A DNA stretch of 64,000 bases, taken from the NCBI RefSeq assembly GCF_988242995.1, contig NZ_OZ547043.1. The stretch is one strand, 5' to 3'. Under the pieces are notes generated by a model. The model searched no databases. It was not told the origin of the DNA and saw only the letters and a list, made by a program, of their open reading frames with translations. Made by a program: the position numbers and the translations under genes. Positions 23,906-26,467 of this stretch are shown here, piece after piece. Every line of letters begins with the position of its first letter. The first letter of the stretch is position 1.

Positions 23906-24520
<615 letters not shown>

Positions 24521-24874
24521 TTATCTCTATTCCGTAGCGATTCGCTACCACTTATTTAAAGATAAGACGTCCTTTTCAGAGTGCAAATTTCACAACCACT
24601 TATTTGATTTATAACAACTTTCACAAGCACTTAATTTTGTCGCAAAATGACACATTTTTATCTCATCGCGTTTTTTTAATCATAAGAGCGGCTTATGGAT
24701 AATTATTGGAGATGATATCTATTCTCGCTAAGAAGCTGTTGCAGGATATTACTAAATGCGGGTCTGCCCGCGTCAGTTCACTAAGCTTAGTCCCACGTAG
24801 CGAAAATATGGCAGCCGCCATACGCCGCGTTAATTCTATGCAATATGATGTCTATACCCAGACGGAGGTCAGTA

Positions 24875-25048
24875 ATGGCAAACCATCGTGGCGGTTCCGG
24901 CAATTTTGCAGAAGACCGCGAAAGAGCATCAGAAGCAGGTAAAAAAGGTGGACAGCACAGCGGGGGTAATTTCAAGAATGACCCGCAGCGCGCATCAGAA
25001 GCAGGTAAAAAAGGTGGCAAGAGCAGTCACGGCAAAAGTGACAACTAG
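24875..25048 (+). CDS. ymdF: stress-induced KGG-repeat protein YmdF
   Basis: 57 aa from ATG 24875 (MANHRGGSGNF), RBS GGAGG; two RASEAGKKGG repeats. Confidence 0.8.
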   Translation: MANHRGGSGNFAEDRERASEAGKKGGQHSGGNFKNDPQRASEAGKKGGKSSHGKSDN

Positions 25049-25109
25049 CCGGACTAATCAGTGACGAATGGACGAATGCATTTTTGTCTGAAGCTCGTCA
25101 AAAAGTCAT

Positions 25110-25140
25110 CACCGCCGGTAACCCCGGCGGTTTTCTGTTT
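25110..25140. terminator. hairpin plus T-run after ymdF, abutting rutG 3' end
   Basis: ccgccggtaaccccggcgg stem followed by tttt. Confidence 0.5.
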
Positions 25141-26467
25141 ATGGCTCCTGATGAACAACTTCTGGCGGTGGAACGTCAACCAACCTTCTGCTTAACAACG
25201 CATTGAGTAAAATCGCGCCAAAGGTTGCTGTACCGATCCCTCCCAACGTAAAACCGCCCAGCGTGAGAGCAAAATCACCCGCGCCCAGCACTAAGGTTAC
25301 TGCGACCATAATCAAATTACCGTTCTGGCTTAAATCGACACGGTTTTGTACCCAGATCCTTGCGCCTGCGACGGCAATCAGCCCGAACACAACAATTGAA
25401 GCACCACCAATCACCGGTGCAGGAATGGTATGGATCAGCGCGCCAAATTTCGGCGAAAAGCCCAACAGCATGGCGATGACGGCAGCAGCAACAAACACCA
25501 GCGTCGAGTAGACTTTTGTCACGGCCATCACACCGATATTTTCAGCATAGGTGGTCACGCCGCTACCGCCGACAGAGCCGGAAAGCATCGTTGCCAGCCC
25601 ATCGCCCACGAATGCCCGCCCCATATATGGATCCATATTGCGTCCGGTCATCCCGGCGACCGCCTTGAGATGACCTAAGTTTTCTGCCACCAGAATCACC
25701 GCCACGGGCGCAATCAGCATCATTGCCTGACCATTAAAAGCAGGAGTGGAAAAATGTGGCAAACCGAACCAGGCAGCATGGCTGACGAGAGTAAAATTGA
25801 CGGCTTTTCCCAGCCCTAAAACGTTGGTCATCACGCCATACAGCAGACAGGCGACAATTAATCCTACGAGAATCAATAACCGCTGGATCATGCCACGGGT
25901 AAACACCGCCACCAGCCCAATACACAGCACTGTCATTACCGCCATCCAGCTATCAAAGGTCGAAGCCGATACACTTTTCACTGCGATAGGCGCTAAGTTC
26001 AGGCCAATCGCCATCACCACCGCACCCGTCACCACTGGCGGCATCAGTCGTTCAATCCAGCGCGTACCGATTTTCATCACCACCAGGCCAATGACGGTAT
26101 AAACCAGCCCACAGGCGATAATCCCGCCCAGCGCAATGCTGATATTCGGGTTAATGCCCTGACCGTTAAAGCCCGTCGCGGCAATCACCACGCCGACAAA
26201 AGCCGCGCTGGAGCCGAGATAACTGGGGACGCGCCCGCCGGTAATAAAGAAAAACAGTAACGTGCCGATCCCCGACATCAAAATGGAAAGATTGGGATCC
26301 AGCCCCATCAGAATAGGCATTAACACCGTCGCGCCAAACATCGCCACCGCGTGTTGAACGCCCATTACTGCCGTCTGAGCAAACGACAATCGTTCATCCG
26401 GCGCGACCACGCCGCTCTCTGTAGAGGTCGATTTTAACTGCCAGTGAGGAAAACCGAACATTGCCAT
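25139..26467 (-). CDS. rutG: pyrimidine permease RutG
   Basis: 442 aa from ATG at 26467 (MAMFGFPHWQL), NCS2 transporter. Confidence 0.9.
   Translation of the reverse strand: MAMFGFPHWQLKSTSTESGVVAPDERLSFAQTAVMGVQHAVAMFGATVLMPILMGLDPNLSILMSGIGTLLFFFITGGRVPSYLGSSAAFVGVVIAATGFNGQGINPNISIALGGIIACGLVYTVIGLVVMKIGTRWIERLMPPVVTGAVVMAIGLNLAPIAVKSVSASTFDSWMAVMTVLCIGLVAVFTRGMIQRLLILVGLIVACLLYGVMTNVLGLGKAVNFTLVSHAAWFGLPHFSTPAFNGQAMMLIAPVAVILVAENLGHLKAVAGMTGRNMDPYMGRAFVGDGLATMLSGSVGGSGVTTYAENIGVMAVTKVYSTLVFVAAAVIAMLLGFSPKFGALIHTIPAPVIGGASIVVFGLIAVAGARIWVQNRVDLSQNGNLIMVAVTLVLGAGDFALTLGGFTLGGIGTATFGAILLNALLSRRLVDVPPPEVVHQEP

Follow-up and report, generated by a model that had tools for sequence, protein, structure and literature searches.

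Identity and reading frame of ymdF

The window analyzed here is a stretch of 64,000 nt from contig NZ_OZ547043.1 of RefSeq assembly GCF_988242995.1, in which ymdF occupies positions 24875 to 25048 on the plus strand. The gene begins with an ATG at 24875 and ends with a TAG at 25046 to 25048; these 174 nt encode 57 amino acids plus the stop codon, and their translation, MANHRGGSGNFAEDRERASEAGKKGGQHSGGNFKNDPQRASEAGKKGGKSSHGKSDN, is identical to the 57-residue product quoted in the first-pass annotation of this DNA. The gene name used there is borne out by RefSeq, which annotates ymdF on a record with 100% identity over 901 nt around the gene, that of E. coli SC418 (NZ_LR778147.1). In SC418 the product is labeled "general stress protein," and in many genomes elsewhere the label is "con-10 family general stress protein." The region was found in 5417 of 5426 complete E. 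coli genomes, and a sensitive DNA search with ymdF matched a median of two places per genome, the second being yciG.

For comparative analyses, orthologs were collected by matching a degenerate pattern, built on residues 1 to 14, to species-representative genomes. This yielded 120 loci, all in the Enterobacteriaceae, of which 117 to 119 were usable, depending on the flank that each analysis required. By both its agp-yccJ-wrbA synteny and its MANHRGG N terminus, the gene in the window belongs to the ymdF ortholog group.

The reading frame is well supported. A Shine-Dalgarno sequence, GGAGG (24864 to 24868, plus strand), stands 6 nt before the ATG and is invariant in 117/117 aligned orthologs. 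The computed monoisotopic mass of YmdF minus its Met, 5748.73 Da, equals the mass of intact YmdF (UniProt P56614) measured by top-down mass spectrometry in aged colonies of E. coli BL21 (5748.73 Da; PMC5594050); therefore, ymdF is translated from the ATG at 24875. Among five genera, the variable columns at codon positions 1, 2, and 3 number 3, 4, and 29, respectively, which indicates that the annotated frame is under strong purifying selection. An alternative 67-codon frame from an ATG at 24845 was rejected: the spacing to GGAGG, the RefSeq start, and the mass all favor 24875, and the upstream ATGs fall inside a conserved block of the 5' untranslated region (UTR) described below. Overlapping open reading frames (58 codons in the +2 frame and 77 on the minus strand) were also set aside, since third-position variation tracks the ymdF frame and the synonymous constraint that we detected is local rather than ORF-wide. 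Two frames in the leader and antisense to the gene (24706 to 24942 and 24787 to 25020; 78 and 77 amino acids) match no family and look spurious, as does a 74-amino-acid gene call in the corresponding region of a Salmonella assembly (L002, 1250 to 1474), likewise with no family match.

The 901-nt stretch from 24400 to 25300 has at least 99% identity to only 4 of 5421 E. coli records, the remainder being 95 to 99% identical; its best match, SC418, is a sediment isolate, and in the interval from -110 to +99 around the ymdF ATG, the aligned row is identical in the GTDB representative "Escherichia sp. E1V33." Judged by these matches, the probable source of the window is an Escherichia lineage that is divergent or cryptic.

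Two 22-residue KGG units in tandem

The first-pass annotation described YmdF as carrying two tandem RASEAGKKGG repeats. The decapeptide does occur twice, at residues 17 to 26 and 39 to 48, but the two copies are not adjacent; what is tandem is a longer, 22-residue unit (66 nt) that holds the decapeptide as its conserved core and is repeated twice, head to tail, with 14/22 amino acids and 44/66 nt identical. Unit 1 (24890 to 24955, plus strand) spans residues 6 to 27, GGSGNFAEDRERASEAGKKGGQ, with its core at 24923 to 24952; unit 2 (24956 to 25021, plus strand) spans residues 28 to 49, HSGGNFKNDPQRASEAGKKGGK, with its core at 24989 to 25018. Both end in KKGG followed by one residue, Q or K. At the DNA level, a repeat search returned direct copies of 62 nt that are 73% identical and spaced 66 nt apart; Tandem Repeats Finder gave the 66-nt unit no score. 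Within the protein, the longest stretch that recurs exactly is 10 residues, compared to a maximum of 6 in 20,000 protein shuffles, so the repeat is well beyond chance.

The assignment of this repeat to the KGG type holds up. The Pfam KGG model (PF10685), named "stress-induced bacterial acidophilic repeat motif" in that database, matches YmdF in two stretches with a score of 67 bits (cut-off, 20.4; E = 1.6e-18), with profile positions 1 to 22 of 22 covered; the best stretch, residues 32 to 52, lies in unit 2. PF10685 is present in all 120 homologs listed, and NCBIfam contains no model matching YmdF.

Two exact copies of RASEAGKKGG are a local feature, found in 7/119 orthologs, six of them Escherichia. 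In other genera, the first core reads RASEAGRKGG and the second RASEAGKKGG; the two exact copies in Escherichia are thus due to an R23K change, which is reachable stepwise via CGA and AGA codons. The nucleotide sequences follow a similar gradation: the cores of the two units share 27/30 nt in this strain, 24 to 26/30 in other Escherichia, and mostly 18 to 23/30 in other genera, and a 26-nt exact DNA repeat (24926 to 24951 and 24992 to 25017) is confined to this strain's lineage. Intragenic gene conversion could produce such a repeat, but stepwise substitution explains it equally well, given the 24 to 26/30 identities in other Escherichia and the single synonymous steps between them, which weakens conversion as an explanation.

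Transcription unit and leader

The local gene order is agp (+), yccJ (-), wrbA (-, 23906 to 24502), ymdF (+), and rutG (-, 25139 to 26467), so that ymdF is divergent from wrbA and convergent with rutG. The agp-yccJ-wrbA/ymdF arrangement is shared by E. coli, Salmonella, Klebsiella, Citrobacter, and Enterobacter, and the gene after ymdF varies. The first-pass annotation had placed ymdF just downstream of wrbA. That description is incorrect: the two genes lie on opposite strands and diverge over a 372-bp intergenic region with separate sigma-S-type promoters, and a wrbA-ymdF operon is rejected on the same grounds.

A putative sigma-S-type -10 element of ymdF, CACTAAGCTTAG, was located by homology at 24779 to 24790 on the plus strand. 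The promoter listed for Salmonella ymdF (STM14_1275) is given as ...TTTTTCACTATGCTTAATGTT (PMC5437024 supplement); the -10 block aligns with it and is kept in five genera. By this homology, transcription would start near A24795 and produce a leader of ~80 nt. Another promoter in that supplement corresponds, in reverse complement, to conserved blocks adjoining wrbA (PMC5437024). Since both promoters are matched here, the intergenic region holds two back-to-back sigma-S-type promoters. The more proximal hexamers TATGAT (24844 to 24849) and CTATAC (24852 to 24857) were set aside, because it is the distal -10 that matches the listed Salmonella promoter; a second, proximal ymdF promoter is possible. 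A generic sigma-70 scan returned nothing but an unrelated weak site at 24620 to 24648.

Other parts of the intergenic region (24503 to 24874) are invariant in five genera: TTTGATTTATAACAA near 24600 to 24614, TTTGTnGCAAAATGAYACATTTTT near 24636 to 24660, and TGTTGCAGGATATTAC at 24737 to 24752. These blocks may be regulator sites. The reported targets of CsgD include both ymdF and wrbA (PMC10002515).

The leader would open, within its initial 35 nt, with a stem-loop at 24796 to 24829 (plus strand), in which an outer stem, CGTAGCG/CGCCGCG, encloses an inner hairpin, ATGGC/GCCAT. Among 117 orthologs, the outer helix is 81.7% paired, with 6 of its 7 pairs changed on both sides, and its covariation score of 0.284 exceeds those of slid partners (0.147 at most) and is reached in 0 of 500 shuffles; RNAalifold recovers four of the pairs. 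This structure is probably an mRNA-stabilizing hairpin. Near 24830, the Escherichia leader lacks a hairpin of ~15 to 25 nt, GGTGAAAGAATCCTCTTTTAC or GAGGTATCACTCCTC, that is found in most other genera (L002 to L005, A3).

At its 3' end, ymdF shares a bidirectional intrinsic terminator with rutG (25111 to 25141, both strands), which reads ACCGCCGG-TAACC-CCGGCGGT followed by a T-run. Its GC-rich hairpin (25111 to 25131) has a terminator score on both strands and is kept after ymdF in five genera, and the motif GCCGG..CCGGC..TTTT occurs 3' of the gene in 96/119 orthologs. With this hairpin kept behind it irrespective of the gene that follows, ymdF is its own transcription unit. The 3' UTR also contains a perfect 8-nt tandem, GACGAATG twice, at 25063 to 25078. 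Overall, it is practically certain that ymdF is monocistronic, that it belongs to the core genes of E. coli and of every member of the Enterobacteriaceae sampled, and that it encodes two 22-residue KGG repeats and has yciG as its paralog.

Synonymous constraint and a candidate RNA element

Codons 16 to 21 (24920 to 24937, plus strand; GAA AGA GCA TCA GAA GCA) stand out by constraint at synonymous sites. Among 117 species, their synonymous entropy is 0.08 to 0.32 bits, and the rare codon AGA is kept in 114 of the 117. The codons for R-A-S-E-A in unit 2 (39 to 43) have entropies of 0.94, 1.65, 1.80, 0.63, and 1.75 bits in the same species; since the two segments are compared within the same genes, shared phylogeny cannot account for the constraint.

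A potential partner lies in the leader. A 17-nt block of the 5' UTR, ATGCAATATGATGTCTA (24838 to 24854, plus strand), is near-invariant in five genera with diverged flanks, is recognizable in 95/117 orthologs, and occurs once within the window. It is complementary to codons 17 to 21 (UGAUG/CAUCA and UGC/GCA), and both the fold of the E. coli leader and the five-genus RNAalifold consensus predict a long-range helix between the two that encloses the ribosome-binding site. In the ortholog alignment, 91.8% of the cells in this helix are pairable, compared to at most 60.5% for slid partners, and no covariation was detected. The z-score of the fold is -0.43, the helix has a predicted probability of 0.25 in the window (average, 0.43), and ~15 species retain codons 16 to 21 without a recognizable UTR block. 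The same codons can also be read, in one register, as (ARN)2-N3-(ARN)3, which makes the segment a candidate docking site for Hfq or a small RNA instead.

The RNA-level constraint on a repeat-coding segment suggests posttranscriptional control of ymdF. That the mRNA contains an undescribed conserved cis-regulatory element, whether the helix between codons 16 to 21 and the UTR or an Hfq/small-RNA docking site, is a proposal that we advance with considerable doubt. Were the helix to form, it could gate translation or stability of the ymdF mRNA by enclosing the ribosome-binding site.

A more radical reading of these data is that the locus functions mainly as RNA, either a regulatory transcript or a small RNA derived from the 3' UTR, and that the open reading frame is incidental. 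The synonymous constraint and the structured, conserved leader would fit this reading, as would a weak, full-length match of the 3' UTR (25057 to 25136, plus strand) to sroD (Rfam RF00370). However, at 22.7 bits the match lies far below the gathering score of 50, and it rests on GUGACGAA and the terminator hairpin, and we therefore rejected membership in sroD. More decisively, the intact protein has been observed at exactly the predicted mass (PMC5594050) and detected by liquid chromatography-mass spectrometry (LC-MS) in Salmonella (PMC5437024), codon-position variation follows the 3/4/29 pattern, and the amino acids are almost invariant while most third positions vary. An RNA-only role is thus exceedingly improbable.

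Properties and conservation of the protein

The first-pass annotation characterized YmdF as a small hydrophilic stress protein, and its composition agrees. At 21.1% glycine and a Kyte-Doolittle hydrophilicity of 1.71, YmdF falls within the hydrophilin definition of Garay-Arroyo et al. (2000), for which the thresholds quoted in PMC3983491 are glycine above 6% and mean hydrophilicity above 1. The protein has a pI of 9.9 and a net charge of +4, and its only hydrophobic residues are Met1, Phe11, and Phe33. Solved structures include no sequence homolog. An AF2 model of YmdF alone has a mean pLDDT of 65.9 and a pTM of 0.30, values that, coming from a single sequence, are weak evidence for disorder; it contains only two short helices, residues 11 to 24 and 37 to 45, which lie over the repeat cores. 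The model thus lends weak support to a protein that would be disordered with local helical propensity.

Residues 15 to 49, which lie outside the pattern used to collect orthologs, are 97.7% identical to the consensus among 119 orthologs, and the last ~8 residues take 59 different forms in the same set. This near invariance across the Enterobacteriaceae argues for a sequence-specific interaction over a generic hydrophilic shield. The extreme conservation of a putatively disordered YmdF, like the synonymous constraint on codons 16 to 21 with its candidate leader partner, is apparently undescribed and possibly new. In contrast, ymdF itself, its KGG repeats, its control by RpoS, its expression, and several deletion phenotypes are already published and ordinary.

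One specific activity that has been considered for KGG proteins is nucleotide binding through a Walker A (P-loop) motif. The Pfam KGG text, in the part quoted in PMC9262955, hints at such a motif, which has been discussed for YciG, and E. coli YmdF contains two matches to [AG]x4GK[ST], AGKKGGKS at residue 43 and GKSSHGKS at residue 48. Yet the pattern is found in only 28/119 orthologs, the match at residue 48 extends into the variable C-terminal tail, and a chain with so much Gly, Lys, and Ser would be expected to contain such matches by chance. A Pfam search at E values up to 1 returned no P-loop domain, 57 residues with three hydrophobic side chains cannot build the strand-loop-helix of a P-loop, and YmdF is described as devoid of the motif in PMC9262955. 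We therefore reject membership in the P-loop NTPases and consider a nucleotide-binding mini-protein very improbable.

Published expression and phenotypes

The first-pass annotation stated that the function of ymdF was not established, and it proposed expression profiling in stationary phase and osmotic stress together with a deletion phenotype. With respect to molecular mechanism, the statement stands; expression and deletion phenotypes, on the other hand, are already in the literature (PMC5437024, PMC5594050, PMC9262955, PMC7161692, and bioRxiv 10.64898/2026.04.09.717482). Expression, whose absence under any tested condition was to count against the earlier reading, has been published (PMC5437024, PMC5594050). 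In Salmonella, deletion of rpoS lowers the ymdF transcript by a log2 value of -6.8 and the protein by -5.2 (PMC5437024); in the supplement to that study, wrbA falls by -5.4 alongside the -6.8 for ymdF, in keeping with the stationary-phase association claimed for wrbA. The RpoS dependence of ymdF in E. coli and S. Enteritidis has been summarized elsewhere (PMC7161692). YmdF, YciG, and STM14_1829 of Salmonella were described as paralogous hydrophilins, and all three were seen by LC-MS (PMC5437024).

Deletion and overexpression have been studied in several settings. Biofilms of E. coli Δ ymdF strains are thin, with ~10-fold fewer cells, and are ~100-fold more sensitive to H2O2, with increased sensitivity to tobramycin and ciprofloxacin as well (PMC9262955). 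In the same work, ymdF and PA2146 of Pseudomonas aeruginosa cross-complemented, and multicopy ymdF rescued a sagS mutant. In S. Typhimurium, yciG ymdF double mutants and triple mutants grow modestly more poorly at pH 4.5 (bioRxiv 10.64898/2026.04.09.717482). For the Salmonella orthologs, Oguri 2019 is reported to have observed intrinsic disorder experimentally and to have described these small proteins as acting redundantly on flagellar motility (cited in both PMC7161692 and bioRxiv 10.64898/2026.04.09.717482). Overexpression of ymdF altered persister levels and lowered ATP (bioRxiv 10.1101/310961). The paralog YciG, at a molar ratio of 1:1, is reported to shield lactate dehydrogenase from drying (Reyes 2005, as cited in PMC3983491). 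KGG proteins have a part in the drug tolerance of biofilms of E. coli, Klebsiella, and Pseudomonas.

Mode of action

Our leading interpretation, to which we would assign a probability of roughly 0.45 to 0.5, is that YmdF is an abundant, RpoS-induced, late embryogenesis abundant (LEA)-like hydrophilin that physically protects macromolecules and is redundant with YciG. It is favored by composition, abundance, protective phenotypes, and the in vitro precedent of YciG, from which the protectant activity of YmdF would be extrapolated by analogy. The sigma-S (RpoS) promoter ~80 nt upstream gives rise to the ymdF transcript, as the literature indicates for other strains and as we presume for this one, and the leader begins with the probably stabilizing 5' hairpin. 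YmdF accumulates to high levels in stationary-phase colonies and biofilms, again on the strength of published work with other strains. Under our interpretation, it would act stoichiometrically and at high concentration form a coat or solvation layer around proteins, and perhaps also around membranes or nucleic acids; the RASEAGKKGG cores may form short, transient helices. Damage and aggregation would thereby be limited under water loss, acid, oxidative, or antibiotic stress, and this protective function would be redundant with that of YciG.

Several observations sit uneasily with a protectant. Residues 15 to 49 are conserved far beyond the need of a composition-driven, nonspecific shield, and some phenotypes look regulatory, namely, biofilm architecture and the sagS rescue (PMC9262955) and Salmonella motility (bioRxiv 10.64898/2026.04.09.717482). 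In some strains, single mutants showed neither an acid nor a motility phenotype (bioRxiv 10.64898/2026.04.09.717482, PMC7161692). It is conceivable, although we hold it to be short of an even chance, that YmdF is instead a disordered adaptor or modulator that folds on binding one specific, conserved partner, candidates for which are the ribosome, the transcription machinery, a component of the flagellar/biofilm regulatory network, or nucleic acid. In that case, the effects on stress tolerance and biofilm architecture would arise indirectly, through regulation, and not from physical shielding by YmdF. A dedicated partner would explain why the 15-49 segment is almost invariant in 119 species while the tail is free to take 59 distinct forms. 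However, group 1 LEA motifs, too, show high conservation and yet are regarded as protectants, which weakens this argument. The interchangeability of E. coli ymdF and P. aeruginosa PA2146 and the restoration of biofilm architecture and tobramycin tolerance to the sagS sensor mutant by multicopy ymdF (PMC9262955) point toward a partner, as do the redundant effects of the Salmonella paralogs on flagellar synthesis (bioRxiv 10.64898/2026.04.09.717482) and the shifts in persister levels and ATP upon overexpression (bioRxiv 10.1101/310961). However, work with S. Enteritidis failed to reproduce the motility effects (PMC7161692), and the extreme abundance of YmdF in old colonies (PMC5594050) is a better fit to a stoichiometric protectant than to a regulator.

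Comparison with known systems

By description, YmdF resembles GsiB of Bacillus subtilis, con-10 of Neurospora, and the plant group 1 LEA protein Em: all are small, glycine-rich, hydrophilic stress or dormancy proteins with repeated KGG-containing motifs. GsiB, con-10, and Em differ in repeat number and consensus and are under sigma-B or developmental control, whereas YmdF is under RpoS control. The KGG motif has been linked to LEA proteins (PMC5437024 supplement). An hmmscan against Pfam-A at E values up to 1 found only KGG and a subthreshold DUF6291 and no LEA family; the relationship between YmdF and LEA proteins is therefore not supported by sequence here.

A closer functional counterpart is PA2146 of P. 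aeruginosa, a small KGG protein with strong induction in biofilms whose deletion likewise leads to thin, drug-sensitive biofilms (PMC9262955). It belongs to another genus and lies in another genomic context, and its homology to YmdF is as stated in PMC9262955.

The closest relative is YciG (STM14_1829/SEN1538 in Salmonella), which has the same two-unit KGG architecture and a similar size, 59 to 60 amino acids. Like YmdF, YciG is an RpoS-dependent hydrophilin reported to be disordered (PMC5437024, PMC7161692) and is found intact in colonies (PMC5594050); in vitro enzyme protection, in the account given by PMC3983491, is ascribed to YciG only. The genes differ in context, with yciG heading the yciGFE operon beside trpA and ymdF being monocistronic and divergent from wrbA. 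YciG begins with MAEH rather than MANH and has a different C-terminal tail; the UTR block of ymdF is absent from the yciG leader, and codons 16 to 21 of yciG are GAG AAG GCA TCC GAC GCA. Between E. coli yciG and ymdF, 29 of the first 50 codons differ, only 6 of them nonsynonymously. Corresponding units match at 49/66 nt (unit 1 with unit 1) and 54/66 nt (unit 2 with unit 2) between the two genes, compared to 36 to 44/66 nt for units within a gene. Because the units match better between ymdF and yciG than within either gene, the internal duplication predates the split of the paralogs.
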